The notes under the pieces are model-generated. The model did not search any database. It saw nothing but the letters and a program-made list of their open reading frames with translations, and was not told the DNA's origin. A stretch of 64,000 bases of DNA, taken from NCBI GenBank assembly GCA_032718475.1, contig JAUCBJ010002409.1:15613-79612 (forward strand), given 5' to 3'. Below are positions 2,432 through 28,848 of the stretch, piece after piece. Numbering within the stretch: position 1 is the stretch's first letter; each line of letters opens with the position of its first letter. The position numbers were made by a program, and so were the translations under genes. The stretch is from Nemertoderma westbladi. Taxonomy: Eukaryota; Animalia; Xenacoelomorpha.

Positions 2432-2604
2432 GTGAGTGCCTAATTAACAAGTCTTCCACTAGGGGGCGCATAGTATGCCTGTAAGACCTGAAGCCCCTTA
2501 AGGGTAGGAACTAAAAACGCTCCCCCAATCAAGACATTAAAATTAAATAAGCATGGAATATTCATAAATATTCGTATTCACTGCGGAACACTGCTACTAA
2601 TAAG

Positions 2605-3090: not shown

Positions 3091-3437
3091 AGGTGATTGT
3101 GTCCGTCTACTTTGTTAGATTGACTAAGACGTTATCGTTGACTAATTTCAAGATTGTTGGTAAATTACGAGGGCCACTTTGTCTTCTAACGGATCCAAAG
3201 TCCCCCTCACCCGGTTTCTCATTTTCCTCTTCCCAGAGGTTATTCCTTCACAGTAGCTTACATCCCAACACACTTATTGATAATGATACTATTATTAATT
3301 GTAGCTTACATCAATACACTAACTGTTGGTAATGATACCCGTTAAGGCATATTAAAAATAAGTTTTATGTAACTGAAATATGTTGATGTTATTGTTGGAT
3401 AACAATATTAATTATCACTTTTATTTTATATACGCAG

Positions 3438-3542
3438 TATGAATTCTCCGAAAGCGATCGTGAATGCGCCATGGATAACCTGAATATTTATGTTTCTGAA
3501 GGCAGCATTCCTTGGACTGCGTTAGAGTTTATTACAGCTGAG
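3438..3542 (+). CDS. DNAH6: Dynein heavy chain exon
   Basis: cgcag| ... |gtgagt; YEFSESDRECAMDNL...IPWTALEFITAE. Confidence 0.92.
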
Positions 3543-3781
3543 GTGAGTGTGAGCATCACGTGATCTCTATATTTATGTTATTACCATAACGACTGTTATT
3601 ACAAAATATAAACAGGTAAAACCTCTAGTGTTACATCCCACAAACTAACAAAAAACATAGAATCAGGACGTTAACGCCCAAAATATTGTTCAGCCACTGG
3701 GAGTCGAGGTTTTACTTGTTTATTTTATATAATATATACAATATGCCCCCCTGTTAGTCAGTATGTCGCATGCAACCTTTA

Positions 3782-3976
3782 TTTATGTTATAACCATAAC
3801 TACTTTTATGTTATTCCCATAGCGACTTTATGTTATTCCCATAACGACTTTATGTTATTCCCATACCGACTTTATGTTATTTCCATACCGACTTTATGTT
3901 ATTCCCATAACGACTTTATGTTATTCCCATAACGACTTTATGTTATTCCCATAGCGACTTTATGTTATTCCCATAG
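3782..3976 (+). repeat. 22-bp minisatellite (CGACTTTATGTTATTCCCATA[G/A/C]) whose last unit forms the 3' splice site
   Basis: About 9 copies; the final unit supplies the AG at 3975-3976. Confidence 0.92.
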
Positions 3977-4213
3977 ATAACGTACGGCGGCCGTGTTACC
4001 GACGCTTGGGACCAACGGTGTTTGCGAACAGTTCTCAAGAGGTTTTTCGGTCGCAGGATTATGGAGCCGGACTATAAATACTCGGAATCCGGTACTTATT
4101 ACTGTCCGGAGGCGGATACTCTTACAGAATTCCGGTCCTACATAGACCAACTACCAATACTCGATCAGCCTGAAATATTTGGGATGCACGAGAATGCTAA
4201 CATTACCTTCCAG
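3977..4213 (+). CDS. DNAH6: Dynein heavy chain exon
   Basis: cccatag| ... |gttgat; [20 protein letters not shown]...[15 protein letters not shown]. Confidence 0.93.
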
Positions 4214-4884
4214 GTTGATAATAATTATTATTGTTAACAAGAGTGGACGATTTTCTATGAATTTTAAATCTCTTCTTTCATAGGGTATTTAAAAAAGGCA
4301 GTCATTTATCTATCTACTAAAAATAACTAAATATTATGATATTAATATGACAATAATTAATAATATTAATAATTTTTTTTTTAATATACGCCCCCACTCG
4401 GGGCAATTCGGGTACTTTATTTATATAGTCCAGCTATTAAAAGGTATTTATACTGGATACAGAACAATAAAATAAAACAATATAGAAATAAAACTTTGTA
4501 GAAAACTGTTAATAGACAGTTTTAAAAGGACTGGTTAGCATTACAGTTAGTGAAGTGATGGTGTTTTGAGAGACCTATTCTTAATATTCTATAATAATAA
4601 TATCACCAAATTTTAACAGGAAAATCACTAAAATATTTAGTGTCCACTATAATTATATTAATTATCACTAAAATCTATTGATTGTCATTAAAAGGGAAAG
4701 GAGCAGGTTACAGCGACACGTTGTTCTAACCATAACATTCAACTAAATTCAATAGAACACCTTACAGTTATAGTTTTAGTGATAAAAAAAATAGTAAATA
4801 TTTGTACGTTATATATGTACTGAATATTAGACAACACTTTTAATTATCCTTAAAGCAATTTTTTAACTTTTTTTTTGAGTTTAG

Positions 4885-5055
4885 ATGCAAGAAACGTCTG
4901 CGTTGATTGGAGTTATACTCGGTGTTCAACCCCGTTCGGAGGCGGGGGGAACGGGTAAATCGAACGATGAAATTGTCTACGAACTGGCCGAGAACATCCT
5001 CGATAAACTCATGGATAAACTCGATATGGAAGACGCCAAGAGAGATATGTTTGAG
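4885..5055 (+). CDS. DNAH6: Dynein heavy chain exon
   Basis: tttag| ... |gtgaat; MQETSALIGVILGVQPR...GKSNDEIVYELAENIL. Confidence 0.9.
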
Positions 5056-5246
5056 GTGAATAAATTGTTTGTTTTGTTTTTCCATAACAACATTTAGGAA
5101 TTTGTGTGATTTCCATTAAGGAGGATATATAAGTTTTACTACATTGTACGGAAACTGAAATAATAATTAATAAATAATTAATAATTAATAGATTTTTGCC
5201 GAAAATTGGTGCAATAAATTATTATAAAGGCCATTATTTTTTTTAG

Positions 5247-5333
5247 TTGGACAAGAAAGGAAGGATGAACTCCCTAACAACGGTTCTCCTGCAGGAGGTC
5301 GATCGATTCAATAAACTGCTGGGCGTTATTAAG
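5247..5333 (+). CDS. DNAH6: Dynein heavy chain exon
   Basis: ttttag| ... |gtaagt; [29 protein letters not shown]. Confidence 0.92.
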
Positions 5334-5401
5334 GTAAGTAAAGTATCTGTGTTCATTAATGGATATTAATTATCATTTTATACGGGTATACCACCGTGTC
5401 G

Positions 5402-8400
5402 ACCACACGATCATCGGATGGTTTTACTTTCATTTCCGTTAGTGCCAAGCACACGATCGGAGGGTTTTACTTTCATTTCCGTTAGTGCCAACCACACGAT
5501 CGGAGGGTTTTACTTTCATTTCCTTTAGTGCCAACCACACGATCGGAGGGTTTTACTTTCATTTCCGTTAGTGCCAACCACACGATCGGAGGGTTTTACT
5601 TTCATTTCCGTTAGTGCCAACCACACGATCGGGGGGTTTTACTTTCATTTCCTTTAGTGCCAACCACACGATCGGAGGGTTTTACTTTCATTTCCGTTAG
5701 TGCCAACCACACGATCGGGGGGTTTTACTTTCATTTCCGTTAGTGTCAACCACACGATCGGGGGGTTTTACTTTCATTTCCTTTAGTACCAACCACACGA
5801 TCGGAGGGTTTTACTTTCATTTCCTTTAGTGCCAACCACACGATCGGAGGGTTTTACTTTCATTTCCTTTAGTACCAACCACACGATCGGAGGGTTTTAC
5901 TTTCATTTCCGTTAGTGCCAACCACACGATCGGAGGGTTTTACTTTCATTTCCTTTAGTGCCAACCACACGATCGGAGGGTTTTACTTTCATTTCCGTTA
6001 GTGCCAACCACACGATCGGAGGGTTTTACTTTCATTTCCGTTAGTGCCAACCACACGATCGGAGGGTTTTACTTTCATTTCCGTTAGTGCCAACCACACG
6101 ATCGGGGGGTTTTACTTTCATTTCCTTTAGTGCCAACCACACGATCGGAGGGTTTTACTTTCATTTCCGTTAGTGCCAACCACACGATCGGGGGGTTTTA
6201 CTTTCATTTCCGTTAGTGCCAACCACACGATCGGGGGGTTTTACTTTCATTTCCTTTAGTACCAACCACACGATCGGAGGGTTTTACTTTCATTTCCTTT
6301 AGTGCCAACCACACGATCGGGGGGTTTTACTTTCATTTCCGTTAGTGCCAATCACACGATCGGAGGGTTTTACTTTCATTTCCTTTAGTGCCAACCACAC
6401 GATCGGAGGGTTTTACTTTCATTTCCTTTAGTGCCAACCACACGATCGGAGGGTTTTACTTTCATTTCCGTTAGTGCCAATCACACGATCGGAGGGTTTT
6501 ACTTTCATTTCCTTTAGTGCCAACCACACGATCGGAGGGTTTTACTTTCATTTCCGTTAGTGCCAATCACACGATCGGAGGGTTTTACTTTCATTTCCTT
6601 TAGTGCCAACCACACGATCGGAGGGTTTTACTTTCATTTCCTTTAGTGCCAACCACACGATCGGAGGGTTTTACTTTCATTTCCTTTAGTGCCAACCACA
6701 CGATCGGAGGGTTTTACTTTCATTTCCTTTAGTGCCAACCACACGATCGGAGGGTTTTACTTTCATTTCCGTTAGTGCCAATCACACGATCGGAGGGTTT
6801 TACTTTCATTTCCTTTAGTGCCAACCACACGATCGGAGGGTTTTACTTTCATTTCCTTTAGTGCCAACCACACGATCGGAGGGTTTTACTTTCATTTCCT
6901 TTAGTGCCAACCACACGATCGGAGGGTTTTACTTTCATTTCATTTAGTGCCAACCACACGATCGGAGGGTTTTACTTTCATTTCATTTAGTGCCAACCAC
7001 ACGATCGGAGGGTTTTACTTTCATTTCCTTTAGTGCCAACCACACGATCGGAGGGTTTTACTTTCATTTCCTTTAGTGCCAACCACACGATCGGAGGGTT
7101 TTACTTTCATTTCCTTTAGTGCCAACCACACGATCGGAGGGTTTTACTTTCATTTCATTTAGTGCCAACCACACGATCGGAGGGTTTTACTTTCATTTCC
7201 TTTAGTGCCAACCACACGATCGGAGGGTTTTACTTTCATTTCCTTTAGTGCCAATCAGACGATCGGAGGGTTTTACTTTCATTTCCTTTAGTGCCAACCA
7301 CACGATCGGAGGGTTTTACTTTCATTTCCTTTAGTGCCAACCACACGATCGGAGGGTTTTACTTTCATTTCCGTTAGTGCCAATCACACGATCGGAGGGT
7401 TTTACTTTCATTTCCTTTAGTGCCAACCACACGATCGGAGGGTTTTACTTTCATTTCCGTTAGTGCCAATCACACGATCGGAGGGTTTTACTTTCATTTC
7501 CTTTAGTGCCAACCACACGATCGGAGGGTTTTACTTTCATTTCCTTTAGTGCCAACCACACGATCGGAGGGTTTTACTTTCATTTCCGTTAGTACCAACC
7601 ACACGATCGGAGGGTTTTACTTTCATTTCCTTTAGTGCCAACCACACGATCGGAGGGTTTTACTTTCATTTCCGTTAGTACCAACCACACGATCGGAGGG
7701 TTTTACTTTCATTTCCTTTAGTACCAACCACACGATCGGAGGGTTTTACTTTCATTTCCTTTAGTGCCAACCACACGATCGGAGGGTTTTACTTTCATTT
7801 CCTTTAGTGCCAACCACACGATCGGAGGGTTTTACTTTCATTTCCTTTAGTGCCAACCACACGATCGGAGGGTTTTACTTTCATTTCATTTAGTGCCAAC
7901 CACACGATCGGAGGGTTTTACTTTCATTTCCTTTAGTGCCAACCACACGATCGGAGGGTTTTACTTTCATTTCATTTAGTGCCAACCACACGATCGGAGG
8001 GTTTTACTTTCATTTCCTTTAGTGCCAACCACACGATCGGAGGGTTTTACTTTCATTTCCTTTAGTACCAATCACACGATCGGAGGGTTTTACTTTCATT
8101 TCCTTTAGTGCCAATCACACGATCGGAGGGTTTTACTTTCATTTCCTTTAGTGCCAACCACACGATCGGAGGGTTTTACTTTCATTTCCTTTAGTGCCAA
8201 CCACACGATCGGAGGGTTTTACTTTCATTTCCTTTAGTGCCAACCACACGATCGGAGGGTTTTACTTTCATTTCCTTTAGTGCCAACCACACGATCGGAG
8301 GGTTTTACTTTCATTTCCTTTAGTGCCAACCACACGATCGGAGGGTTTTACTTTCATTTCCTTTAGTGCCAACCACACGATCGGAGGGTTTTACTTTCAT

Positions 8401-11400
8401 TTCATTTAGTACCAACCACACGATCGGAGGGTTTTACTTTCATTTCCTTTAGTGCCAACCACACGATCGGAGGGTTTTACTTTCATTTCCTTTAGTGCCA
8501 ACCACACGATCGGAGGGTTTTACTTTCATTTCCTTTAGTGCCAACCACACGATCGGAGGGTTTTACTTTCATTTCCTTTAGTGCCAAGCACACGATCGGA
8601 GGGTTTTACTTTCATTTCCTTTAGTACCAACCACACGATCGGAGGGTTTTACTTTCATTTCCTTTAGTACCAACCACACGATCGGAGGGTTTTACTTTCA
8701 TTTCCTTTAGTACCAACCACACGATCGGAGGGTTTTAGTTTCATTTCCTTTAGTACCAACCACACGATCGGAGGGTTTTACTTTCATTTCCGTTAGTGCC
8801 AATCACACGATCGGAGGGTTTTACTTTCATTTCCTTTAGTGCCAACCACACGATCGGAGGGTTTTACTTTCATTTCCTTTAGTGCCAACCACACGATCGG
8901 AGGGTTTTACTTTCATTTCATTTAGTGCCAACCACACGATCGGAGGGTTTTACTTTCATTTCCTTTAGTGCCAACCACACGATCGGAGGGTTTTACTTTC
9001 ATTTCCGTTAGTGCCAATCACACGATCGGAGGGTTTTACTTTCATTTCCTTTAGTGCCAACCACACGATCGGAGGGTTTTACTTTCATTTCCTTTAGTAC
9101 CAACCACACGATCGGAGGGTTTTACTTTCATTTCCTTTAGTACCAACCACACGATCGGAGGGTTTTACTTTCATTTCCTTTAGTGCCAACCACACGATCG
9201 GAGGGTTTTACTTTCATTTCCTTTAGTACCAATCACACGATCGGAGGGTTTTACTTTCATTTCCTTTAGTGCCAACCACACGATCGGAGGGTTTTACTTT
9301 CATTTCCTTTAGTGCCAACCACACGATCGGAGGGTTTTACTTTCATTTCCTTTAGTGCCAACCACACGATCGGAGGGTTTTACTTTCATTTCCTTTAGTA
9401 CCAACCACACGATCGGAGGGTTTTACTTTCATTTCCTTTAGTGCCAACCACACGATCGGAGGGTTTTACTTTCATTTCCTTTAGTACCAACCACACGATC
9501 GGAGGGTTTTACTTTCATTTCCTTTAGTACCAACCACACGATCGGAGGGTTTTACTTTCATTTCCTTTAGTACCAACCACACGATCGGAGGGTTTTACTT
9601 TCATTTCCTTTAGTGCCAACCACACGATCGGAGGGTTTTACTTTCATTTCCTTTAGTACCAACCACACGATCGGAGGGTTTTACTTTCATTTCCTTTAGT
9701 ACCAACCACACGATCGGAGGGTTTTACTTTCATTTCCTTTAGTGCCAACCACACGATCGGAGGGTTTTACTTTCATTTCCTTTAGTACCAACCACACGAT
9801 CGGAGGGTTTTACTTTCATATCCTTTAGTGCCAACCACACGATCGGAGGGTTTTACTTTCATTTCCTTTAGTACCAACCACACGATCGGAGGGTTTTACT
9901 TTCATTTCCTTTAGTACCAACCACACGATCGGAGGGTTTTACTTTCATTTCCTTTAGTGCCAACCACACGATCGGAGGGTTTTACTTTCATTTCATTTAG
10001 TACCAACCACACGATCGGAGGGTTTTACTTTCATTTCCTTTAGTGCCAACCACACGATCGGAGGGTTTTACTTTCATTTCCTTTAGTACCAATCACACGA
10101 TCGGAGGGTTTTACTTTCATTTCATTTAGTACCAACCACACGATCGGAGGGTTTTACTTTCATTTCCTTTAGTGCCAACCACACGATCGGAGGGTTTTAC
10201 TTTCATTTCCTTTAGTACCAATCACACGATCGGAGGGTTTTACTTTCATTTCATTTAGTACCAACCACACGATCGGAGGGTTTTACTTTCATTTCCTTTA
10301 GTGCCAACCACACGATCGGAGGGTTTTACTTTCATTTCCTTTAGTACCAATCACACGATCGGAGGGTTTTACTTTCATTTCCTTTAGTGCCAATCACACG
10401 ATCGGAGGGTTTTACTTTCATTTCATTTAGTACCAACCACACGATCGGAGGGTTTTACTTTCATTTCCTTTAGTGCCAACCACACGATCGGAGGGTTTTA
10501 CTTTCATTTCCTTTAGTACCAATCACACGATCGGAGGGTTTTACTTTCATTTCCTTTAGTGCCAACCACACGATCGGAGGGTTTTACTTTCATTTCCTTT
10601 AGTGCCAACCACACGATCGGAGGGTTTTACTTTCATATCCTTTAGTGCCAACCACACGATCGGAGGGTTTTACTTTCATTTCCTTTAGTGCCAACCACAC
10701 GATCGGAGGGTTTTACTTTCATTTCCTTTAGTACCAACCACACGATCGGAGGGTTTTACTTTCATTTCCTTTAGTGCCAACCACACGATCGGAGGGTTTT
10801 ACTTTCATTTCCTTTAGTACCAACCACACGATCGGAGGGTTTTACTTTCATATCCTTTAGTGCCAACCACACGATCGGAGGGTTTTACTTTCATTTCCTT
10901 TAGTACCAACCACACGATCGGAGGGTTTTACTTTCATTTCCTTTAGTACCAACCACACGATCGGAGGGTTTTACTTTCATTTCCTTTAGTGCCAACCACA
11001 CGATCGGAGGGTTTTACTTTCATTTCATTTAGTACCAACCACACGATCGGAGGGTTTTACTTTCATTTCCTTTAGTGCCAACCACACGATCGGAGGGTTT
11101 TACTTTCATTTCCTTTAGTACCAATCACACGATCGGAGGGTTTTACTTTCATTTCATTTAGTACCAACCACACGATCGGAGGGTTTTACTTTCATTTCCT
11201 TTAGTGCCAACCACACGATCGGAGGGTTTTACTTTCATTTCCTTTAGTACCAATCACACGATCGGAGGGTTTTACTTTCATTTCCTTTAGTGCCAATCAC
11301 ACGATCGGAGGGTTTTACTTTCATTTCCTTTAGTGCCAACCACACGATCGGAGGGTTTTACTTTCATTTCCTTTAGTGCCAACCACACGATCGGAGGGTT

Positions 11401-14256
11401 TTACTTTCATTTCATTTAGTACCAACCACACGATCGGAGGGTTTTACTTTCATTTCCTTTAGTGCCAACCACACGATCGGAGGGTTTTACTTTCATTTCC
11501 TTTAGTACCAATCACACGATCGGAGGGTTTTACTTTCATTTCCTTTAGTGCCAACCACACGATCGGAGGGTTTTACTTTCATTTCATTTAGTACCAACCA
11601 CACGATCGGAGGGTTTTACTTTCATTTCCTTTAGTGCCAACCACACGATCGGAGGGTTTTACTTTCATATCCTTTAGTGCCAACCACACGATCGGAGGGT
11701 TTTACTTTCATTTCCTTTAGTGCCAACCACACGATCGGAGGGTTTTACTTTCATTTCCTTTAGTACCAACCACACGATCGGAGGGTTTTACTTTCATTTC
11801 CTTTAGTGCCAACCACACGATCGGAGGGTTTTACTTTCATTTCCTTTAGTACCAACCACACGATCGGAGGGTTTTACTTTCATATCCTTTAGTGCCAACC
11901 ACACGATCGGAGGGTTTTACTTTCATTTCCTTTAGTACCAACCACACGATCGGAGGGTTTTACTTTCATTTCCTTTAGTACCAACCACACGATCGGAGGG
12001 TTTTACTTTCATTTCCTTTAGTGCCAACCACACGATCGGAGGGTTTTACTTTCATATCCTTTAGTGCCAACCACACGATCGGAGGGTTTTACTTTCATTT
12101 CCTTTAGTACCAACCACACGATCGGAGGGTTTTACTTTCATTTCCTTTAGTGCCAACCACACGATCGGAGGGTTTTACTTTCATTTCCTTTAGTGCCAAC
12201 CACACGATCGGAGGGTTTTACTTTCATTTCCTTTAGTGCCAACCACACGATCGGAGGGTTTTACTTTCATTTCCTTTAGTACCAACCACACGATCGGAGG
12301 GTTTTACTTTCATTTCCTTTAGTGCCAACCACACGATCGGAGGGTTTTACTTTCATTTCCTTTAGTGCCAACCACACGATCGGAGGGTTTTACTTTCATT
12401 TCCTTTAGTACCAACCACACGATCGGAGGGTTTTACTTTCATTTCCTTTAGTACCAACCACACGATCGGAGGGTTTTACTTTCATTTCCGTTAGTACCAA
12501 CCACACGATCGGAGGGTTTTACTTTCATTTCCTTTAGTGCCAACCACACGATCGGAGGGTTTTACTTTCATTTCCTTTAGTGCCAACCACACGATCGGGG
12601 GGTTTTACTTTCATTTCCTTTAGTGCCAACCACACGATCGGAGGGTTTTACTTTCATTTCCGTTAGTGCCAACCACACGATCGGGGGGTTTTACTTTCAT
12701 TTCCTTTAGTGCCAACCACACGATCGGAGGGTTTTACTTTCATTTCCTTTAGTGCCAACCACACGATCGGAGGGTTTTACTTTCATTTCCTTTAGTACCA
12801 ACCACACGATCGGAGGGTTTTACTTTCATTTCCTTTAGTGCCAACCACACGATCGGAGGGTTTTACTTTCATTTCCTTTAGTGCCAACCACACGATCGGA
12901 GGGTTTTACTTTCATTTCCGTTAGTGCCAACCACACGATCGGAGGGTTTTACTTTCATTTCCTTTAGTGCCAACCACACGATCGGAGGGTTTTACTTTCA
13001 TTTCCTTTAGTACCAATCACACGATCGGAGGGTTTTACTTTCATTTCCGTTAGTGCCAATCACACGATCGGAGGGTTTTACTTTCATTTCCTTTAGTGCC
13101 AACCACACGATCGGAGGGTTTTACTTTCATTTCCGTTAGTGCCAACCACACGATCGGAGGGTTTTACTTTCATTTCCTTTAGTGCCAACCACACGATCGG
13201 AGGGTTTTACTTTCATTTCCTTTAGTGCCAACCACACGATCGGAGGGTTTTACTTTCATATCCTTTAGTGCCAACCACACGATCGGAGGGTTTTACTTTC
13301 ATTTCCTTTAGTACCAACCACACGATCGGAGGGTTTTACTTTCATTTCATTTAGTACCAACCACACGATCGGAGGGTTTTACTTTCATTTCCTTTAGTGC
13401 CAACCACACGATCGGAGGGTTTTACTTTCATTTCCTTTAGTGCCAACCACACGATCGGAGGGTTTTACTTTCATTTCCTTTAGTGCCAACCACACGATCG
13501 GGGGGTTTTACTTTCATTTCCGTTAGTGCCAATCACACGATCGGAGGGTTTTACTTTCATTTCCTTTAGTGCCAACCACACGATCGGGGGGTTTTACTTT
13601 CATTTCCGTTAGTGCCAACCACACGATCGGAGGGTTTTACTTACATTTCCTTTAGTGCCAACCACACGATCGGAGGGTTTTACTTTCATTTCCTTTAGTA
13701 CCAACCACACGATCGGAGGGTTTTACTTTCATTTCCTTTAGTACCAACCACACGATCGGAGGGTTTTACTTTCATTTCCTTTAGTACCAACCACACGATC
13801 GGAGGGTTTTACTTTCATTTCCGTTAGTGCCAACCACACGATCGGAGGGTTTTACTTTCATTTCCTTTAGTGCCAACCACACGATCGGAGGGTTTTACTT
13901 TCATTTCCTTTAGTACCAACCACACGATCGGAGGGTTTTACTTTCATTTCCTTTAGTGCCAACCACACGATCGGAGGGTTTTACTTTCATTTCCGTTAGT
14001 GCCAATCACACGATCGGAGGGTTTTACTTTCATTTCCTTTAGTGCCAACCACACGATCGGAGGGTTTTACTTTCATTTCCGTTAGTGCCAATCACACGAT
14101 CGGAGGGTTTTACTTTCATTTCCTTTAGTGCCAACCACACGATCGGAGGGTTTTACTTTCATTTCCGTTAGTGCCAATCACACGATCGGAGGGTTTTACT
14201 TTCATTTCCTTTAGTGCCAACCACACGATCGGAGGGTTTTACTTTCATTTCCGTTA
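5402..14256 (+). repeat. 43-bp intronic satellite (CCACACGATCGGAGGGTTTTACTTTCATTTCCTTTAGTGCCAA)n, about 206 copies
   Basis: Head-to-tail near-identical units that fill almost all of intron 5334-14264. Confidence 0.98.
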
Positions 14257-14264
14257 TATTTTAG

Positions 14265-14450
14265 ATTTCTTTAATAAATCTGCAAAAGGCAATTAAAGGT
14301 TTGGTTGTTATGGACGACAAACTGGAACTGATTTATGGTTGTTTCCTTAACAACCAAGTACCTGGCCAATGGGAGGACGTCGCCTATCCGTCATTGAAAC
14401 CGCTCGGTAGTTGGGTCAATGACCTTAGACTGCGAACACATTTTATTGAT
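14265..14450 (+). CDS. DNAH6: Dynein heavy chain exon
   Basis: ttttag| ... |gtgagt; [16 protein letters not shown]...LNNQVPGQW...[15 protein letters not shown]. Confidence 0.93.
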
Positions 14451-14779
14451 GTGAGTATTGGTTGAAATTATTATTATTGCTATTATATTATGGTGAGCGC
14501 ATATGGCTGCGTTGGACTGTTATGAGGTGATTGACGTCGTTGATGCGGTACCGGTAGCTTCTATACTAAATTAAGTATTTAACTTTCAGTTTTATGTTAT
14601 TATCAAGTTATTACCGATAGACTGCTGTCTACATGTCCAGACAGTGTACTGACGATTCCGACAAACATGTTCTTATGTTTGTTATCATGTTGCTTAGAAA
14701 CACTCGTGCAATAAATAAATATTTCCTCCCCAAAGTTATTTATCTATTCCTAATATTTATTCGGATTGTATTCTTGCAG

Positions 14780-15004
14780 CATTGGGTTCGCAATGGGGCC
14801 CCGAGGTCCTTCTGGCTGTCCGGTTTCTTCTTCCCTCAAGGGTTCCTTACCGGTACTCTTCAGAACTACGCCCGTTCCTATGACTACCCTATAGACCAAC
14901 TGAGTTTCATGTTCCGAGTTCTACCCCACTACAGAGACCAGAATGAGGTTGCTAAGCAACTATCAGAACTAAAGTTTGGCGAAGAAATGGAAATGGATAA
15001 AGAG
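14780..15004 (+). CDS. DNAH6: Dynein heavy chain exon
   Basis: ttgcag| ... |gttggt; [36 protein letters not shown]. Confidence 0.93.
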
Positions 15005-15473
15005 GTTGGTAGACGCCATCTAGCGTCAGTTTAGTGTAGGAAATAAATACTGGCACTATAATATTTCGCGCCGTAAAATATAACAATCACTTAAATATAA
15101 ACCAATACTAATTACTTATCTTGCCCATCTCAGAGTCCATGAACAGAATAAGTGGCCATGTATTAATTGCACACTTTTTATATATGTTTATTTTTACCAT
15201 AATTAATAATGTGCATTTTGTGACTTATTCGTGTATTTATTGTATGGTGTGCCCTACTGTCGGATAAAAAACTCCTAGATTAGTATTGAGTTACGTTATT
15301 TAACGTTGTATTTCAAGGCGACTTGAAAATAATGTTGTGTTTTATCTGTAAGATGGGTGGGTGCACTGGCTTCGTTTTAATTACTATAGGTAAGGCGAGC
15401 CTAGTGAGGGTTTAAAATAAATATAAGTAAATTGCCCAAAAAGACCGAGCGATACATTCCGATATCGTTTCAG

Positions 15474-15696
15474 ATTCCAAAGATTAAGGACGGAGTTTTA
15501 GTCCATGGTCTGTTTCTGGACGCGGCCCGATGGAATGACGTCACCAACCAGCTGAGTGACCCCCTGCCAGGCGAGATGAACCCAACCTTCCCGATGATGC
15601 ATATGGAACCCCAGATGAGTTTCCAGGTTCCAGAACGCGATTATATCTGTCCGTTGTATAAAACATCAGCACGAGCCGGGGTTCTATCTACTACCG
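15474..15696 (+). CDS. DNAH6: Dynein heavy chain penultimate coding exon
   Basis: tttcag| ... ACT ACC G|gtaagt; DGVLVHGLFLDAARW...YICPLYKTSARAGVLSTT. Confidence 0.93.
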
Positions 15697-18600
15697 GTAA
15701 GTTTATTTAACACGAGCCGGGGTTCTATCTACCGGTAAGTTTATTTAACACGAGCCGGGGTTCTATCTACCGGTAAGTTTATTTAACACGAGCCGGGGTT
15801 CTATCTACCGGTAAGTTTATTTAACACGAGCCGGGGTTCTATCTACTACCGGTAAGTTTATTTAACACGAGTCGGGGTTCTATCTACTACCGGTAAGTTT
15901 ATTTAACACGAGCCGGGGTTCTATCTACTACCGGTAAGTTTATTTAACACGAGCCGGGGTTCTATCTACCGGTAAGTTAATTTAACACGAGTCGGGGTTC
16001 TATCTACCGGTAAGTTTATTTAACACGAGTCGGGGTTCTATCTACTACCGGTAAGTTTATTTAACACGAGTCGGGGTTCTATCTACTACCGGTAAGTTTA
16101 TTTAACACGAGCCGGGGTTCTATCTACCGGTAAGTTTATTTAACACGAGCCGGGGTTCTATCTACCGGTAAGTTTATTTAACACGAGCCGGGGTTCTATC
16201 TACCGGTAAGTTTATTTAACACGAGCCGGGGTTCTATCTACCGGTAAGTTTATTTAACACGAGCCGGGGTTCTATCTACTACCGGTAAGTTTATTTAACA
16301 CGAGCCGGGGTTCTATCTACCGGTAAGTTTATTTAACACGAGCCGGGGTTCTATCTACCGGTAAGTTTATTTAACACGAGCCGGGGTTCTATCTACCGGT
16401 AAGTTTATTTAACACGAGCCGGGGTTCTATCTACCGGTAAGTTTATTTAACACGAGCCGGGGTTCTATCTACCGGTAAGTTTATTTAACACGAGCCGGGG
16501 TTCTATCTACTACCGGTAAGTTTATTTAACACGAGCCGGGGTTCTATCTACTACCGGTAAGTTTATTTAACACGAGTCGGGGTTCTATCTACCGGTAAGT
16601 TTATTTAACACGAGCCGGGGTTCTATCTACTACCGGTAAGTTTATTTAACACGAGCCGGGGTTCTATCTACTACCGGTAAGTTTATTTAACACGAGTCGG
16701 GGTTCTATCTACTACCGGTAAGTTTATTTAACACGAGTCGGGGTTCTATCTACTACCGGTAAGTTTATTTAACACGAGCCGGGGTTCTATCTACCGGTAA
16801 GTTTATTTAACACGAGCCGGGGTTCTATCTACCGGTAAGTTTATTTAACACGAGTCGGGGTTCTATCTACCGGTAAGTTTATTTAACACGAGCCGGGGTT
16901 CTATCTACTACCGGTAAGTTTATTTAACACGAGCCGGGGTTCTATCTACTACCGGTAAGTTTATTTAACACGAGTCGGGGTTCTATCTACTACCGGTAAG
17001 TTTATTTAACACGAGTCGGGGTTCTATCTACTACCGGTAAGTTTATTTAACACGAGTCGGGGTTCTATCTACTACCGGTAAGTTTATTTAACACGAGCCG
17101 GGGTTCTATCTACTACCGGTAAGTTTATTTAACACGAGTCGGGGTTCTATCTACTACCGGTAAGTTTATTTAACACGAGTCGGGGTTCTATCTACTACCG
17201 GTAAGTTTATTTAACACGAGTCGGGGTTCTATCTACTACCGGTAAGTTTATTTAACACGAGTCGGGGTTCTATCTACTACCGGTAAGTTTATTTAACACG
17301 AGCCGGGGTTCTATCTACTACCGGTAAGTTTATTTAACACGAGCCGGGGTTCTATCTACCGGTAAGTTTATTTAACACGAGTCGGGGTTCTATCTCTACC
17401 GGTAAGTTTATTTAACACGAGCCGGGGTTCTATCTACCGGTAAGTTTATTTAACACGAGCCGGGGTTCTATCTACTACCGGTAAGTTTATTTAACACGAG
17501 CCGGGGTTCTATCTACTACCGGTAAGTTTATTTAACACGAGTCGGGGTTCTATCTACCGGTAAGTTTATTTAACACGAGCCGGGGTTCTATCTACCGGTA
17601 AGTTTATTTAACACGAGCCGGGGTTCTATCTACTACCGGTAAGTTTATTTAACACGAGCCGGGGTTCTATCTACTACCGGTAAGTTTATTTAACACGAGT
17701 CGGGGTTCTATCTACTACCGGTAAGTTTATTTAACACGAGCCGGGGTTCTATCTACCGGTAAGTTTATTTAACACGAGCCGGGGTTCTATCTACTACCGG
17801 TAAGTTTATTTAACACGAGCCGGGGTTCTATCTACTACCGGTAAGTTTATTTAACACGAGCCGGGGTTCTATCTACTACCGGTAAGTTTATTTAACACGA
17901 GCCGGGGTTCTATCTACTACCGGTAAGTTTATTTAACACGAGCCGGGGTTCTATCTACTACCGGTAAGTTTATTTAACACGAGCCGGGGTTCTATCTACT
18001 ACCGGTAAGTTTATTTAACACGAGCCGGGGTTCTATCTACTACCGGTAAGTTTATTTAACACGAGTCGGGGTTCTATCTACTACCGGTAAGTTTATTTAA
18101 CACGAGCCGGGGTTCTATCTACTACCGGTAAGTTTATTTAACACGAGCCGGGGTTCTATCTACTACCGGTAAGTTTATTTAACACGAGCCGGGGTTCTAT
18201 CTACTACCGGTAAGTTTATTTAACACGAGCCGGGGTTCTATCTACCGGTAAGTTTATTTAACACGAGCCGGGGTTCTATCTACCGGTAAGTTTATTTAAC
18301 ACGAGTCGGGGTTCTATCTACCGGTAAGTTTATTTAACACGAGCCGGGGTTCTATCTACTACCGGTAAGTTTATTTAACACGAGCCGGGGTTCTATCTAC
18401 CGGTAAGTTTATTTAACACGAGCCGGGGTTCTATCTACCGGTAAGTTTATTTAACACGAGCCGGGGTTCTATCTACTACCGGTAAGTTTATTTAACACGA
18501 GCCGGGGTTCTATCTACTACCGGTAAGTTTATTTAACACGAGCCGGGGTTCTATCTACTACCGGTAAGTTTATTTAACACGAGTCGGGGTTCTATCTACC

Positions 18601-21600
18601 GGTAAGTTTATTTAACACGAGCCGGGGTTCTATCTACTACCGGTAAGTTTATTTAACACGAGCCGGGGTTCTATCTACCGGTAAGTTTATTTAACACGAG
18701 CCGGGGTTCTATCTACTACCGGTAAGTTTATTTAACACGAGTCGGGGTTCTATCTACCGGTAAGTTTATTTAACACGAGCCGGGGTTCTATCTACTACCG
18801 GTAAGTTTATTTAACACGAGCCGGGGTTCTATCTACTACCGGTAAGTTTATTTAACACGAGTCGGGGTTCTATCTACCGGTAAGTTTATTTAACACGAGC
18901 CGGGGTTCTATCTACCGGTAAGTTTATTTAACACGAGCCGGGGTTCTATCTACTACCGGTAAGTTTATTTAACACGAGCCGGGGTTCTATCTACCGGTAA
19001 GTTTATTTAACACGAGTCGGGGTTCTATCTACTACCGGTAAGTTTATTTAACACGAGCCGGGGTTCTATCTACTACCGGTAAGTTTATTTAACACGAGTC
19101 GGGGTTCTATCTACCGGTAAGTTTATTTAACACGAGCCGGGGTTCTATCTACCGGTAAGTTTATTTAACACGAGTCGGGGTTCTATCTACTACCGGTAAG
19201 TTTATTTAACACGAGCCGGGGTTCTATCTACTACCGGTAAGTTTATTTAACACGAGCCGGGGTTCTATCTACTACCGGTAAGTTTATTTAACACGAGCCG
19301 GGGTTCTATCTACTACCGGTAAGTTTATTTAACACGAGCCGGGGTTCTATCTACTACCGGTAAGTTTATTTAACACGAGTCGGGGTTCTATCTACTACCG
19401 GTAAGTTTATTTAACACGAGCCGGGGTTCTATCTACTACCGGTAAGTTTATTTAACACGAGTCGGGGTTCTATCTACCGGTAAGTTTATTTAACACGAGC
19501 CGGGGTTCTATCTACTACCGGTAAGTTTATTTAACACGAGCCGGGGTTCTATCTACTACCGGTAAGTTTATTTAACACGAGCCGGGGTTCTATCTACTAC
19601 CGGTAAGTTTATTTAACACGAGCCGGGGTTCTATCTACTACCGGTAAGTTTATTTAACACGAGCCGGGGTTCTATCTACTACCGGTAAGTTTATTTAACA
19701 CGAGCCGGGGTTCTATCTACTACCGGTAAGTTTATTTAACACGAGCCGGGGTTCTATCTACTACCGGTAAGTTTATTTAACACGAGTCGGGGTTCTATCT
19801 ACTACCGGTAAGTTTATTTAACACGAGCCGGGGTTCTATCTACTACCGGTAAGTTTATTTAACACGAGTCGGGGTTCTATCTACCGGTAAGTTTATTTAA
19901 CACGAGCCGGGGTTCTATCTACCGGTAAGTTTATTTAACACGAGCCGGGGTTCTATCTACCGGTAAGTTTATTTAACACGAGTCGGGGTTCTATCTACTA
20001 CCGGTAAGTTTATTTAACACGAGCCGGGGTTCTATCTACTACCGGTAAGTTTATTTAACACGAGCCGGGGTTCTATCTACTACCGGTAAGTTTATTTAAC
20101 ACGAGCCGGGGTTCTATCTACTACCGGTAAGTTTATTTAACACGAGCCGGGGTTCTATCTACTACCGGTAAGTTTATTTAACACGAGCCGGGGTTCTATC
20201 TACTACCGGTAAGTTTATTTAACACGAGCCGGGGTTCTATCTACTACCGGTAAGTTTATTTAACACGAGCCGGGGTTCTATCTACTACCGGTAAGTTTAT
20301 TTAACACGAGCCGGGGTTCTATCTACTACCGGTAAGTTTATTTAACACGAGCCGGGGTTCTATCTACTACCGGTAAGTTTATTTAACACGAGCCGGGGTT
20401 CTATCTACTACCGGTAAGTTTATTTAACACGAGCCGGGGTTCTATCTACTACCGGTAAGTTTATTTAACACGAGCCGGGGTTCTATCTACTACCGGTAAG
20501 TTTATTTAACACGAGCCGGGGTTCTATCTACTACCGGTAAGTTTATTTAACACGAGTCGGGGTTCTATCTACTACCGGTAAGTTTATTTAACACGAGCCG
20601 GGGTTCTATCTACTACCGGTAAGTTTATTTAACACGAGCCGGGGTTCTATCTACCGGTAAGTTTATTTAACACGAGCCGGGGTTCTATCTACCGGTAAGT
20701 TTATTTAACACGAGCCGGGGTTCTATCTACTACCGGTAAGTTTATTTAACACGAGCCGGGGTTCTATCTACTACCGGTAAGTTTATTTAACACGAGCCGG
20801 GGTTCTATCTACTACCGGTAAGTTTATTTAACACGAGCCGGGGTTCTATCTACCGGTAAGTTTATTTAACACGAGCCGGGGTTCTATCTACTACCGGTAA
20901 GTTTATTTAACACGAGCCGGGGTTCTATCTACTACCGGTAAGTTTATTTAACACGAGCCGGGGTTCTATCTACTACCGGTAAGTTTATTTAACACGAGCC
21001 GGGGTTCTATCTACTACCGGTAAGTTTATTTAACACGAGCCGGGGTTCTATCTCTACCGGTAAGTTTATTTAACACGAGCCGGGGTTCTATCTACTACCG
21101 GTAAGTTTATTTAACACGAGCCGGGGTTCTATCTACTACCGGTAAGTTTATTTAACACGAGCCGGGGTTCTATCTACTACCGGTAAGTTTATTTAACACG
21201 AGCCGGGGTTCTATCTACTACCGGTAAGTTTATTTAACACGAGCCGGGGTTCTATCTACTACCGGTAAGTTTATTTAACACGAGCCGGGGTTCTATCTAC
21301 TACCGGTAAGTTTATTTAACACGAGCCGGGGTTCTATCTACTACCGGTAAGTTTATTTAACACGAGCCGGGGTTCTATCTACTACCGGTAAGTTTATTTA
21401 ACACGAGCCGGGGTTCTATCTACTACCGGTAAGTTTATTTAACACGAGCCGGGGTTCTATCTACCGGTAAGTTTATTTAACACGAGCCGGGGTTCTATCT
21501 ACTACCGGTAAGTTTATTTAACACGAGCCGGGGTTCTATCTACTACCGGTAAGTTTATTTAACACGAGCCGGGGTTCTATCTACTACCGGTAAGTTTATT

Positions 21601-24600
21601 TAACACGAGCCGGGGTTCTATCTACCGGTAAGTTTATTTAACACGAGCCGGGGTTCTATCTACTACCGGTAAGTTTATTTAACACGAGCCGGGGTTCTAT
21701 CTACTACCGGTAAGTTTATTTAACACGAGCCGGGGTTCTATCTACTACCGGTAAGTTTATTTAACACGAGCCGGGGTTCTATCTACTACCGGTAAGTTTA
21801 TTTAACACGAGCCGGGGTTCTATCTACTACCGGTAAGTTTATTTAACACGAGCCGGGGTTCTATCTACTACCGGTAAGTTTATTTAACACGAGCCGGGGT
21901 TCTATCTACTACCGGTAAGTTTATTTAACACGAGCCGGGGTTCTATCTACTACCGGTAAGTTTATTTAACACGAGCCGGGGTTCTATCTACTACCGGTAA
22001 GTTTATTTAACACGAGCCGGGGTTCTATCTACTACCGGTAAGTTTATTTAACACGAGCCGGGGTTCTATCTACTACCGGTAAGTTTATTTAACACGAGCC
22101 GGGGTTCTATCTACTACCGGTAAGTTTATTTAACACGAGCCGGGGTTCTATCTACTACCGGTAAGTTTATTTAACACGAGCCGGGGTTCTATCTACTACC
22201 GGTAAGTTTATTTAACACGAGCCGGGGTTCTATCTACTACCGGTAAGTTTATTTAACACGAGCCGGGGTTCTATCTACTACCGGTAAGTTTATTTAACAC
22301 GAGCCGGGGTTCTATCTACTACCGGTAAGTTTATTTAACACGAGCCGGGGTTCTATCTACTACCGGTAAGTTTATTTAACACGAGCCGGGGTTCTATCTA
22401 CTACCGGTAAGTTTATTTAACACGAGCCGGGGTTCTATCTACTACCGGTAAGTTTATTTAACACGAGCCGGGGTTCTATCTACTACCGGTAAGTTTATTT
22501 AACACGAGCCGGGGTTCTATCTACTACCGGTAAGTTTATTTAACACGAGCCGGGGTTCTATCTACTACCGGTAAGTTTATTTAACACGAGCCGGGGTTCT
22601 ATCTACTACCGGTAAGTTTATTTAACACGAGCCGGGGTTCTATCTACTACCGGTAAGTTTATTTAACACGAGCCGGGGTTCTATCTACTACCGGTAAGTT
22701 TATTTAACACGAGCCGGGGTTCTATCTACTACCGGTAAGTTTATTTAACACGAGCCGGGGTTCTATCTACTACCGGTAAGTTTATTTAACACGAGCCGGG
22801 GTTCTATCTACTACCGGTAAGTTTATTTAACACGAGCCGGGGTTCTATCTACTACCGGTAAGTTTATTTAACACGAGCCGGGGTTCTATCTACTACCGGT
22901 AAGTTTATTTAACACGAGCCGGGGTTCTATCTACCGGTAAGTTTATTTAACACGAGCCGGGGTTCTATCTACCGGTAAGTTTATTTAACACGAGCCGGGG
23001 TTCTATCTACCGGTAAGTTTATTTAACACGAGCCGGGGTTCTATCTACTACCGGTAAGTTTATTTAACACGAGCCGGGGTTCTATCTACTACCGGTAAGT
23101 TTATTTAACACGAGCCGGGGTTCTATCTACTACCGGTAAGTTTATTTAACACGAGCCGGGGTTCTATCTACTACCGGTAAGTTTATTTAACACGAGCCGG
23201 GGTTCTATCTACTACCGGTAAGTTTATTTAACACGAGCCGGGGTTCTATCTACTACCGGTAAGTTTATTTAACACGAGCCGGGGTTCTATCTACTACCGG
23301 TAAGTTTATTTAACACGAGCCGGGGTTCTATCTACTACCGGTAAGTTTATTTAACACGAGCCGGGGTTCTATCTACTACCGGTAAGTTTATTTAACACGA
23401 GCCGGGGTTCTATCTACTACCGGTAAGTTTATTTAACACGAGCCGGGGTTCTATCTACTACCGGTAAGTTTATTTAACACGAGCCGGGGTTCTATCTACT
23501 ACCGGTAAGTTTATTTAACACGAGCCGGGGTTCTATCTACTACCGGTAAGTTTATTTAACACGAGCCGGGGTTCTATCTACTACCGGTAAGTTTATTTAA
23601 CACGAGCCGGGGTTCTATCTACTACCGGTAAGTTTATTTAACACGAGCCGGGGTTCTATCTACTACCGGTAAGTTTATTTAACACGAGCCGGGGTTCTAT
23701 CTACCGGTAAGTTTATTTAACACGAGCCGGGGTTCTATCTACCGGTAAGTTTATTTAACACGAGCCGGGGTTCTATCTACTACCGGTAAGTTTATTTAAC
23801 ACGAGCCGGGGTTCTATCTACCGGTAAGTTTATTTAACACGAGCCGGGGTTCTATCTACTACCGGTAAGTTTATTTAACACGAGCCGGGGTTCTATCTAC
23901 TACCGGTAAGTTTATTTAACACGAGCCGGGGTTCTATCTACTACCGGTAAGTTTATTTAACACGAGCCGGGGTTCTATCTACCGGTAAGTTTATTTAACA
24001 CGAGCCGGGGTTCTATCTACTACCGGTAAGTTTATTTAACACGAGCCGGGGTTCTATCTACTACCGGTAAGTTTATTTAACACGAGCCGGGGTTCTATCT
24101 ACTACCGGTAAGTTTATTTAACACGAGCCGGGGTTCTATCTACTACCGGTAAGTTTATTTAACACGAGCCGGGGTTCTATCTACTACCGGTAAGTTTATT
24201 TAACACGAGCCGGGGTTCTATCTACCGGTAAGTTTATTTAACACGAGCCGGGGTTCTATCTACTACCGGTAAGTTTATTTAACACGAGCCGGGGTTCTAT
24301 CTACTACCGGTAAGTTTATTTAACACGAGCCGGGGTTCTATCTACTACCGGTAAGTTTATTTAACACGAGCCGGGGTTCTATCTACCGGTAAGTTTATTT
24401 AACACGAGCCGGGGTTCTATCTACTACCGGTAAGTTTATTTAACACGAGCCGGGGTTCTATCTACCGGTAAGTTTATTTAACACGAGCCGGGGTTCTATC
24501 TACTACCGGTAAGTTTATTTAACACGAGCCGGGGTTCTATCTACTACCGGTAAGTTTATTTAACACGAGCCGGGGTTCTATCTACCGGTAAGTTTATTTA

Positions 24601-27600
24601 ACACGAGCCGGGGTTCTATCTACTACCGGTAAGTTTATTTAACACGAGCCGGGGTTCTATCTACTACCGGTAAGTTTATTTAACACGAGCCGGGGTTCTA
24701 TCTACTACCGGTAAGTTTATTTAACACGAGCCGGGGTTCTATCTACTACCGGTAAGTTTATTTAACACGAGCCGGGGTTCTATCTACTACCGGTAAGTTT
24801 ATTTAACACGAGCCGGGGTTCTATCTACCGGTAAGTTTATTTAACACGAGCCGGGGTTCTATCTACTACCGGTAAGTTTATTTAACACGAGCCGGGGTTC
24901 TATCTACTACCGGTAAGTTTATTTAACACGAGCCGGGGTTCTATCTACTACCGGTAAGTTTATTTAACACGAGCCGGGGTTCTATCTACTACCGGTAAGT
25001 TTATTTAACACGAGCCGGGGTTCTATCTACTACCGGTAAGTTTATTTAACACGAGCCGGGGTTCTATCTACCGGTAAGTTTATTTAACACGAGCCGGGGT
25101 TCTATCTACTACCGGTAAGTTTATTTAACACGAGCCGGGGTTCTATCTACTACCGGTAAGTTTATTTAACACGAGCCGGGGTTCTATCTACTACCGGTAA
25201 GTTTATTTAACACGAGCCGGGGTTCTATCTACCGGTAAGTTTATTTAACACGAGCCGGGGTTCTATCTACTACCGGTAAGTTTATTTAACACGAGCCGGG
25301 GTTCTATCTACCGGTAAGTTTATTTAACACGAGCCGGGGTTCTATCTACTACCGGTAAGTTTATTTAACACGAGTCGGGGTTCTATCTACCGGTAAGTTT
25401 ATTTAACACGAGCCGGGGTTCTATCTACTACCGGTAAGTTTATTTAACACGAGCCGGGGTTCTATCTACTACCGGTAAGTTTATTTAACACGAGCCGGGG
25501 TTCTATCTACCGGTAAGTTTATTTAACACGAGCCGGGGTTCTATCTACCGGTAAGTTTATTTAACACGAGCCGGGGTTCTATCTACTACCGGTAAGTTTA
25601 TTTAACACGAGCCGGGGTTCTATCTACCGGTAAGTTTATTTAACACGAGCCGGGGTTCTATCTACTACCGGTAAGTTTATTTAACACGAGCCGGGGTTCT
25701 ATCTACTACCGGTAAGTTTATTTAACACGAGCCGGGGTTCTATCTACTACCGGTAAGTTTATTTAACACGAGCCGGGGTTCTATCTACCGGTAAGTTTAT
25801 TTAACACGAGCCGGGGTTCTATCTACTACCGGTAAGTTTATTTAACACGAGCCGGGGTTCTATCTACTACCGGTAAGTTTATTTAACACGAGCCGGGGTT
25901 CTATCTACTACCGGTAAGTTTATTTAACACGAGCCGGGGTTCTATCTACTACCGGTAAGTTTATTTAACACGAGCCGGGGTTCTATCTACTACCGGTAAG
26001 TTTATTTAACACGAGCCGGGGTTCTATCTACTACCGGTAAGTTTATTTAACACGAGCCGGGGTTCTATCTACTACCGGTAAGTTTATTTAACACGAGTCG
26101 GGGTTCTATCTACCGGTAAGTTTATTTAACACGAGCCGGGGTTCTATCTACCGGTAAGTTTATTTAACACGAGCCGGGGTTCTATCTACCGGTAAGTTTA
26201 TTTAACACGAGCCGGGGTTCTATCTACTACCGGTAAGTTTATTTAACACGAGCCGGGGTTCTATCTACCGGTAAGTTTATTTAACACGAGCCGGGGTTCT
26301 ATCTACTACCGGTAAGTTTATTTAACACGAGCCGGGGTTCTATCTACTACCGGTAAGTTTATTTAACACGAGCCGGGGTTCTATCTACCGGTAAGTTTAT
26401 TTAACACGAGCCGGGGTTCTATCTACTACCGGTAAGTTTATTTAACACGAGCCGGGGTTCTATCTACTACCGGTAAGTTTATTTAACACGAGCCGGGGTT
26501 CTATCTACTACCGGTAAGTTTATTTAACACGAGCCGGGGTTCTATCTACCGGTAAGTTTATTTAACACGAGCCGGGGTTCTATCTACTACCGGTAAGTTT
26601 ATTTAACACGAGCCGGGGTTCTATCTACTACCGGTAAGTTTATTTAACACGAGCCGGGGTTCTATCTACTACCGGTAAGTTTATTTAACACGAGCCGGGG
26701 TTCTATCTACTACCGGTAAGTTTATTTAACACGAGCCGGGGTTCTATCTACTACCGGTAAGTTTATTTAACACGAGCCGGGGTTCTATCTACCGGTAAGT
26801 TTATTTAACACGAGCCGGGGTTCTATCTACTACCGGTAAGTTTATTTAACACGAGCCGGGGTTCTATCTACTACCGGTAAGTTTATTTAACACGAGCCGG
26901 GGTTCTATCTACTACCGGTAAGTTTATTTAACACGAGCCGGGGTTCTATCTACCGGTAAGTTTATTTAACACGAGCCGGGGTTCTATCTACTACCGGTAA
27001 GTTTATTTAACACGAGCCGGGGTTCTATCTACTACCGGTAAGTTTATTTAACACGAGCCGGGGTTCTATCTACTACCGGTAAGTTTATTTAACACGAGCC
27101 GGGGTTCTATCTACTACCGGTAAGTTTATTTAACACGAGCCGGGGTTCTATCTACTACCGGTAAGTTTATTTAACACGAGCCGGGGTTCTATCTACCGGT
27201 AAGTTTATTTAACACGAGCCGGGGTTCTATCTACTACCGGTAAGTTTATTTAACACGAGTCGGGGTTCTATCTACTACCGGTAAGTTTATTTAACACGAG
27301 CCGGGGTTCTATCTACTACCGGTAAGTTTATTTAACACGAGCCGGGGTTCTATCTACCGGTAAGTTTATTTAACACGAGCCGGGGTTCTATCTACTACCG
27401 GTAAGTTTATTTAACACGAGCCGGGGTTCTATCTACCGGTAAGTTTATTTAACACGAGCCGGGGTTCTATCTACTACCGGTAAGTTTATTTAACACGAGC
27501 CGGGGTTCTATCTACCGGTAAGTTTATTTAACACGAGCCGGGGTTCTATCTACTACCGGTAAGTTTATTTAACACGAGCCGGGGTTCTATCTACTACCGA

Positions 27601-28724
27601 TAAGTTTATTTAACACGAGCCGGGGTTCTATCTACCGGTAAGTTTATTTAACACGAGCCGGGGTTCTATCTACTACCGGTAAGTTTATTTAACACGAGCC
27701 GGGGTTCTATCTACTACCGGTAAGTTTATTTAACACGAGCCGGGGTTCTATCTACTACCGGTAAGTTTATTTAACACGAGCCGGGGTTCTATCTACTACC
27801 GGTAAGTTTATTTAACACGAGCCGGGGTTCTATCTACTACCGGTAAGTTTATTTAACACGAGCCGGGGTTCTATCTACTACCGGTAAGTTTATTTAACAC
27901 GAGCCGGGGTTCTATCTACCGGTAAGTTTATTTAACACGAGCCGGGGTTCTATCTACTACCGGTAAGTTTATTTAACACGAGCCGGGGTTCTATCTACTA
28001 CCGGTAAGTTTATTTAACACGAGCCGGGGTTCTATCTACTACCGGTAAGTTTATTTAACACGAGCCGGGGTTCTATCTACTACCGGTAAGTTTATTTAAC
28101 ACGAGCCGGGGTTCTATCTACTACCGGTAAGTTTATTTAACACGAGCCGGGTTCTATCTACTACCGGTAAGTTTATTTAACACGAGCCGGGGTTCTATCT
28201 ACCGGTAAGTTTATTTAACACGAGCCGGGGTTCTATCTACTACCGGTAAGTTTATTTAACACGAGCCGGGGTTATATCTACTACCGGTAAGTTTATTTAA
28301 CACGAGTCGGGGTTCTATCTACCGGTAAGTTTATTTAACACGAGCCGGGGTTCTATCTACTACCGGTAAGTTTATTTAACACGAGTCGGGGTTCTATCTA
28401 CTACCGGTAAGTTTATTTAACACGAGTCGGGGTTCTATCTACTACCGGTAAGTTTATTTAACACGAGTCGGGGTTCTATCTACCGGTAAGTTTATTTAAC
28501 ACGAGCCGGGGTTCTATCTACTACCGGTAAGTTTATTTAACACGAGTCGGGGTTCTATCTACTACCGGTAAGTTAATTTAACACGAGTCGGGGTTCTATC
28601 TACTACCGGTAAGTTTATTTAACATGAGTCGGGGTTCTATCTACCGGTAAGTTTATTTAACACGAGCCGGGGTTCTATCTACTACCGGTAAGTTTATTTA
28701 ACACGAGCCGGGGTTCTATCTACT
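15670..28724 (+). repeat. 41/38-bp satellite (CACGAGCCGGGGTTCTATCTAC[TAC]CGGTAAGTTTATTTAA)n, roughly 325 copies, starting inside the exon
   Basis: The first unit is the last 27 nt of exon 15474-15696 plus 14 nt of intron; the array ends 20 nt before the next exon. Confidence 0.98.
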
Positions 28725-28744
28725 TCCCATTTGGTATTTTGTAG

Positions 28745-28848
28745 GTCATTCAACTAATTTCGTTGTGGCTTCACACTTGCCGACAGATACCCCTAGTGAC
28801 TATTGGATATCCATGGGAACTGCGTTGCTATGTCAACTTAATGAGTAG
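28745..28848 (+). CDS. DNAH6: Dynein heavy chain terminal coding exon
   Basis: ttttgtag|GT CAT... completes [34 protein letters not shown], the dynein C-terminus with a DNAH6-like ending; AATAAA at 28963. Confidence 0.93.

Follow-up and report, generated by a model that had tools for sequence, protein, structure and literature searches.

The 64,000-nucleotide window analyzed here (Nemertoderma westbladi, GenBank assembly GCA_032718475.1, contig JAUCBJ010002409.1, positions 15,613 to 79,612 of the forward strand) carries in its first 29 kb the 3' portion of an axonemal dynein heavy chain gene together with four arrays detected by Tandem Repeats Finder (TRF), three of which touch a splice signal of that gene. 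In a hand-built model, the C-terminus of a DNAH6-type protein is encoded as a single open frame over 12 exons with a stop at 28848, and all 11 introns are of the GT-AG type. Compared with solved structures, exon 10 gave DNAH6 as its best match (E 9e-27, with the next paralog at 2e-16), and Pfam domains were recognized in exon 6 (AAA_lid_11) and exon 11 (Dynein_C). The eight introns free of arrays measure 131-1006 nt (median 399), and the three array-bearing introns, 5, 8 and 11, measure 434, 8931 and 13048 nt; arrays take up 79% of the span 1-28848. Insertions also lengthen the array-free introns: intron 4 contains a piece of a dispersed repeat (2709-2871) with further copies at 30992-31145 and 54642-54748, and introns 9 and 10 match contigs of other loci.

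The largest array fills most of intron 11 and is built around its donor. Each 41-mer unit joins 27 nt from the end of exon 11 to 14 nt from the start of intron 11 and thereby contains the donor at 15697, in agreement with a preliminary description of this DNA. Over 13 kb, the array comprises 324 full units plus a 23-nt partial copy; 238 of the full units are 41 nt long, 83 have 38 nt and three have 40 nt. The donor is intact in all full units except one (323/324), leaving 322 spare donors behind the first at 15697. Within the last 70 nt of the intron, the only yUnAy branch-like motifs lie at -44 and -49 from the acceptor, both inside the array. Two downstream donors were tested, and both bring in an in-frame stop that would cost the protein its last ~30 residues.

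Intron 8 is occupied by a 43-mer array of 8.9 kb, whose degenerate 5' edge extends back to ~5396, 62 nt past the donor, and whose 3' edge stops 8 nt before the exon 9 acceptor at 14264. The proposal that this unit supplies the pyrimidine tract of the acceptor holds for most of the tract, and the last unit also contributes both branch-like motifs, but the real AG lies outside the unit. All 205 full units nevertheless combine a pyrimidine tract with an AG and thus form decoy acceptors, the AG apparently being created where the end of one unit meets the start of the next. The commonest decoy has 16 pyrimidines in 18 tract positions, compared with 11-15 in the 12 real acceptors. Relative to the real acceptor, the branch-like motifs have positions -24 and -18, and relative to the nearest decoy -17 and -11; a passage in PMC10078293 gives 19-37 nt as the typical branch-to-acceptor distance. 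Each of six decoy acceptors tested leads to premature stops. A 13-unit variant block that includes nine minority units occurs repeatedly in the array, compared with a maximum of four in 60 shuffles, which fits the expectation from block exchange. The 8-nt stretch that holds the real acceptor is itself polymorphic: sequencing runs X1 and X2 share T>C at 14262, and X2 also shows A>T at 14258.

The remaining two arrays are shorter. The periodicity of the 22-mer in intron 5 continues up to the exon 6 acceptor AG at 3975-3976, as previously suggested, and among eight upstream units the AG is kept in two (3822 and 3954), both out of frame. A lone copy of the same unit lies close behind the donor of intron 5, and the array may once have spanned most of this intron. 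The 13-mer array at the start of the window is not anchored on a splice signal; its end is 72 nt away from the acceptor at 660, close to the ~70 nt noted earlier. The positions of these features are collected in Table 1.

Table 1. Dynein exons, tandem arrays and associated unique stretches (window coordinates)
Feature	Position	Strand	Support or remark
Last 12 coding exons, DNAH6-type axonemal dynein heavy chain gene	661..28848	+	Open frame, DNAH6 match, Pfam, spliced contig
Dynein exons 1-6	661-851, 1043-1187, 1319-1508, 2331-2431, 3438-3542, 3977-4213	+	
Dynein exons 7-12	4885-5055, 5247-5333, 14265-14450, 14780-15004, 15474-15696, 28745-28848	+	
13-bp array, cut by window start	1..588	+	TRF
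Lone 22-mer copy, 29 nt past intron 5 donor	3572..3594	+	blastn, 22/23 nt, E 7e-6
22-bp array ending on exon 6 acceptor AG	3782..3976	+	TRF 3782-3975, 8.8 copies
43-bp array	5396..14256	+	TRF 5413-14256, 205.7 copies; present in X1, X2, X3
Unique 8-nt stretch with real exon 9 acceptor AG	14257..14264	+	Used in X4 spliced contig
41/38-bp array	15670..28724	+	TRF 41 bp, 324.6 copies; deep unit contigs in X1, X2, X3
Unique intron 11 remainder, 20 nt, with acceptor of last exon	28725..28744	+	

Four sequencing runs (X1 to X4) carry the locus wholly or partly and were compared over 14215-15745. In X1, X2 and X3, which represent two samples from two studies, the 43-mer contig cycles onto itself and the 41-mer contigs are deep, with the depth of array contigs reaching tens to >100 times that of the flank. 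This ratio varies among runs, including two that come from the same sample; contig depth is not to be read as copy number. At 14262, the letter in X1 and X2 is not that of the window, and hence these runs probably do not represent the assembled haplotype. Run X4 contributes one contig that lacks introns 9 and 10 (GT..AG) and is joined upstream to exon 8 and downstream to exon 12. Exon 8 continues directly at 14265, and the first donor of exon 11 leads directly into exon 12, with no letters besides these, which means that in intron 8 the last acceptor was used, and in intron 11 the first donor. We read this contig as complementary DNA, the kind of run being listed as a guess ('DNA?'). As far as this one contig shows, the messenger RNA uses the exon-nearest site in introns 8 and 11. 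Splice signals are extensively reiterated at the locus (322 extra donors, 205 acceptor-like sites in the 43-mer and two extra AGs in the 22-mer). For the decoys tested, the frame likewise stays open solely through the exon-nearest signals. The use of decoys to produce in-frame micro-exons was considered and rejected, as all copies tested give stops or frameshifts.

With regard to their origin, the four units have little in common. The longest word shared between any two is 4-8 nt, and one of the six pairs reaches P 0.014 before correction, which confirms the earlier statement that the units lack obvious shared sequence and leads to the rejection of a common ancestor or motif. The flanking DNA of the gene itself does match the units, and the sole other copy of a unit within the window is the lone 22-mer in intron 5. 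Among the loose ends of the 43-mer contigs listed for X1 and X2, all lead to the flank of this locus. A dispersed satellite or transposon source finds no support within the window, and an inspection of the array edges for microhomology revealed none that is clear. Judged from these sequence matches, the view that the arrays arose locally, from the gene's own intron-edge DNA, is supported.

Arrays derived from a gene's own splice signals have been described before, contrary to the initial impression that no such description existed (PMC1557585, PMC3087553, PMC3902484). In the human genes F7, 6-16, CBS, LMNB2 and PDGF, according to passages of Borensztajn et al. 2006 (PMC1557585), the first unit of a minisatellite of 5-25 copies spans an exon/intron boundary; the sites include a 37-bp variable number tandem repeat in F7 intron 7, CBS intron 13, 6-16 intron 2 and PDGF intron 4. 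The same passages report that only the most upstream donor is used in F7, LMNB2 and PDGF, and that the first pseudo-sites are used as well in CBS and 6-16. The 41/38-mer resembles the F7 type in its boundary-spanning first unit and in the repetition of the donor down the intron. It differs in scale, with 323 copies over 13 kb against the 5-25 given for the human genes in that source, and in that the downstream donors tested bring in an in-frame stop. In lancelets, the portions of PMC3087553 and PMC3902484 consulted describe 'mirages', tandem copies of 5' and 3' boundaries in the globin genes BflGb6 and BflGb9, Adh3, troponin C and PGBD5, by which splicing is reportedly unaffected. Several unit lengths may occur at one locus there (10-72 bp in Adh3; 60 and 108 bp in PGBD5), AG or GT is lost in some copies, and the mechanism of origin is termed unclear in PMC3087553. 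The 41-mer and, apart from the absence of exonic bases, the 22-mer resemble these mirages as so described, whereas the 43-mer contains neither exon sequence nor the real AG; copy numbers are 3-6 in the globin and PGBD5 mirages and 9-324 in the dynein arrays. If a boundary minisatellite is taken to be one whose unit spans or includes the exon/intron boundary of its host gene, the 41-mer belongs to this class, as does the 22-mer, which ends on the acceptor AG without exonic bases; the 43-mer, ending 8 nt short of the exon, and the 13-mer, 72 nt short, fall outside it. Of the three units to which the preliminary claim assigned a start or end on an exon boundary, two accordingly conform to it in the strict sense.

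A parallel had also been drawn with the Drosophila genes kl-3 and kl-5, in which, as far as the relevant sections of Fingerhut et al. 2019 (PMC6508621) describe them, axonemal dynein introns contain megabases of simple satellite amounting to >99% of the locus and depend on a dedicated expression programme. The likeness is a loose one. It extends to the type of gene and to introns consisting mostly of tandem repeat, but the arrays here cover 0.2-13 kb, with apparently locus-specific units of 13-43 bp taken from the gene's own intron edges, and the largest intron (13,048 nt) is far from the megabase simple-satellite introns that define Y-loop gigantism, which are ~100 times larger. Intron gain from a tandem array of the Rogers type, in which a new intron draws its GT as well as its AG from the unit, was rejected too, for at least one working signal lies in unique DNA in each of the three introns. 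Two further papers deal with repeats and splicing in human (PMC2812944, PMC10078293), and positional enrichment at splice sites is not tested in the passages concerned. A literature search whose coverage left out most subscription journals found no genome-wide test of array enrichment at splice sites.

Whether three of four arrays would touch a splice signal by chance was assessed with a null model in which seeds of unit length are placed uniformly and a touch means contact with the first 6 nt (donor) or the last 20 nt (acceptor region) of the intron. With the lengths of the eight array-free introns, the probability of at least three touches in four amounts to 0.009-0.03 when seeds may span a boundary and to 0.001-0.004 when they may not, the former version being fairer because the 41-mer does span a boundary. 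With the array-bearing introns' own collapsed lengths (262, 113 and 57-100 nt), the joint probability becomes 0.10-0.14 with spanning seeds and 0.02-0.04 without, and it reaches 0.3-0.6 on the assumption that the 22-mer array once extended as far as its lone copy. On these lengths, over the whole range of 0.02-0.6, the null is not rejected. These figures come from four arrays in a window that was picked after the fact for looking striking. Elsewhere in the window, none of the four arrays in a 17-kb intron of the neighboring MAP4K gene lies <1 kb from a splice site; two of these four are the ends of a transposon-like element, and the intron is inflated mainly by such elements. Similarly, none of 11 short local repeats in the eight array-free dynein introns, regarded as possible young two-copy seeds, touches a signal, a comparison of low power. 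Taken together, the data of the window hint at anchoring above chance and do not demonstrate it.

In our judgment, the arrays are probably ordinary minisatellites that were born locally in short introns and have been held beside splice sites by selection, with the exon-nearest signals remaining in use. A minisatellite would begin as a copy of local DNA, and splice signal would make up much of what is local in a short intron; a slip duplicating 22-43 nt within an intron of ~60-260 nt would often yield a unit overlapping the donor or the pyrimidine tract. Growth would then proceed by slippage and block exchange, the latter partly visible in the repeated variant block of the 43-mer. If exonward growth is lethal to the gene, growth would be tolerated only into the intron, and the working site would remain the first of the donor copies or the last of the acceptor copies. 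Unique intron DNA, on the other hand, could be deleted up to the splice signal, bringing the array edges to the signals; such erosion is suggested by intron 11, where 14 + 20 intron-derived nt are left, far fewer than the 131 nt of the shortest array-free intron. That the decoys are bypassed in the X4 contig is probably due to exon definition and a preference for the first donor, as described for F7 (PMC1557585), together with branch-point spacing and the decay of products that carry stops. That short introns have been inflated, as the preliminary description held, is supported by the collapsed lengths, which imply expansion from ~113 nt to 8.9 kb in intron 8 and from ~34-57 nt to 13.0 kb in intron 11. 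Several observations weigh against this explanation. The collapsed lengths are reconstructions with no observed ancestors and could themselves be a consequence of the arrays; if the ancestral introns instead had the lengths of the array-free ones, the contact of three arrays out of four with a signal favors some bias. The block-order test gave 4 for the 41-mer against a shuffle maximum of 6, that is, no block structure above shuffles. In addition, the evidence of splicing comes from one contig, of a run whose kind is a guess, which weakens it as support from RNA; contigs lose rare variants, so that low-level use of decoys could have escaped; and the read support is confined to the 43-mer and 41-mer arrays and does not cover the 22-mer.

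The bias just mentioned would be expected if, as originally put forward, duplications started preferentially at exon/intron junctions and thereby inflated short introns; co-transcriptional R-loops, spliceosome-linked pausing or chromatin edges, for instance, could be responsible. Such splice-junction-seeded amplification would account for the contact of three arrays with signals, one at a donor and two in an acceptor region, and for the low probabilities (0.001-0.03) obtained against array-free intron lengths. The process is nevertheless unproven; the null probability depends on the ancestral intron length assumed and ranges from 0.001 to 0.6. The small and retrospectively chosen sample, a 43-mer without the real AG, a 13-mer 72 nt away from its acceptor, and the absence of signal contact among the 11 short repeats and the four arrays of the neighboring intron also speak against it, and we consider it unlikely. 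Retention for function, with intron length or decay-coupled decoys slowing or tuning dynein expression on the pattern of the giant kl-3 and kl-5 introns, appears more improbable still. The host is indeed an axonemal dynein gene of which arrays form most of the span in the window, and nearly all donors, as well as the AG of every one of the 205 decoy acceptors, are preserved. Young homogenized arrays, however, are expected to hold intact copies in any case (matches of 93-97%), no relationship links the four units, the Y-loop introns described in PMC6508621 exceed these introns by two orders of magnitude, and the single spliced contig makes no use of decoys. The lowest probability is given to the possibility that assembly or library preparation produced the arrays, wholly or for most of their length, as an artefact. 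Their exact lengths do rest on the assembly, and another part of the window has an exact tandem duplication of 682 bp that could have arisen by a slip in assembly. Short-read contigs from other samples nevertheless show both big arrays, with depths far above that of the flank, and the 43-mer variants recur in ordered blocks, so that as to the existence of the arrays this objection is already largely refuted.

Since boundary minisatellites are already known, what is noteworthy at this locus is their size, the presence of three arrays in one gene and the 205 acceptor-like decoys of the 43-mer. Together they provide a natural case for studying how the spliceosome chooses among identical sites spread over 9-13 kb, the decoys being apparently ignored. 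A genome-wide bias of arrays towards splice sites is doubtful on present evidence; if such an excess were true, the scattered cases of F7, CBS and the lancelet mirages would become part of a bias in intron growth, mutational or selective, that can be measured. It is also rather unlikely that, across the lineage, short introns have been systematically inflated hundredfold by arrays that are born at splice signals or ratchet to them and later assume the roles of branch point and pyrimidine tract. Should this be the case, it would represent a genome-wide route to long introns apart from transposon insertion, and the hundreds of identical decoys per intron would offer a natural test of splice-site choice.

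The rest of the window contains a second gene and several repetitive elements. An intron-poor gene of the MAP4K4/misshapen type lies on the minus strand at 36037-60387, apparently with three coding exons (kinase, middle and CNH). The matches listed for it come from distant animals, at 78-82% for the kinase domain (arthropods and lancelets) and 55-57% for the CNH part (vertebrates). Its coding sequence includes tandem repeats with units of 30 bp (38032-38279) and 21 bp (39801-40096). The first exon, which encodes the kinase domain, is tandemly duplicated (57769-59008 and 59410-60691, minus strand; 89.6% identity over 1287 nt), and both copies retain an open frame and a GT donor. As predicted from sequence, they could serve as alternative first exons that would both supply a complete kinase domain.

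The 17-kb MAP4K intron (40646-57862) is filled with pieces of mobile elements. One of them, an 8.4-kb element at 41976-50399, has inverted ends of ~480 nt (79% identity) composed of 129/130-bp subrepeats and contains long open reading frames of 969, 628 and 161 aa without a Pfam match; it looks like a DNA transposon. The exact 682-bp tandem duplication (44316-44997 and 44995-45676) lies inside this element and is either very recent or an assembly slip. A foldback-like element at 55507-57652 carries 527-nt inverted arms (83% identity) and internal 180-bp repeats. Downstream of the dynein gene, another inverted-repeat element (29682-30128 and 32184-32634; 86% identity over 463 nt) encloses an open reading frame that, by eye, we take to be a reverse-transcriptase-like fragment. 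Its end is adjoined by an intergenic 23-bp array of 13 copies (32706-33004), far from the mapped splice sites.

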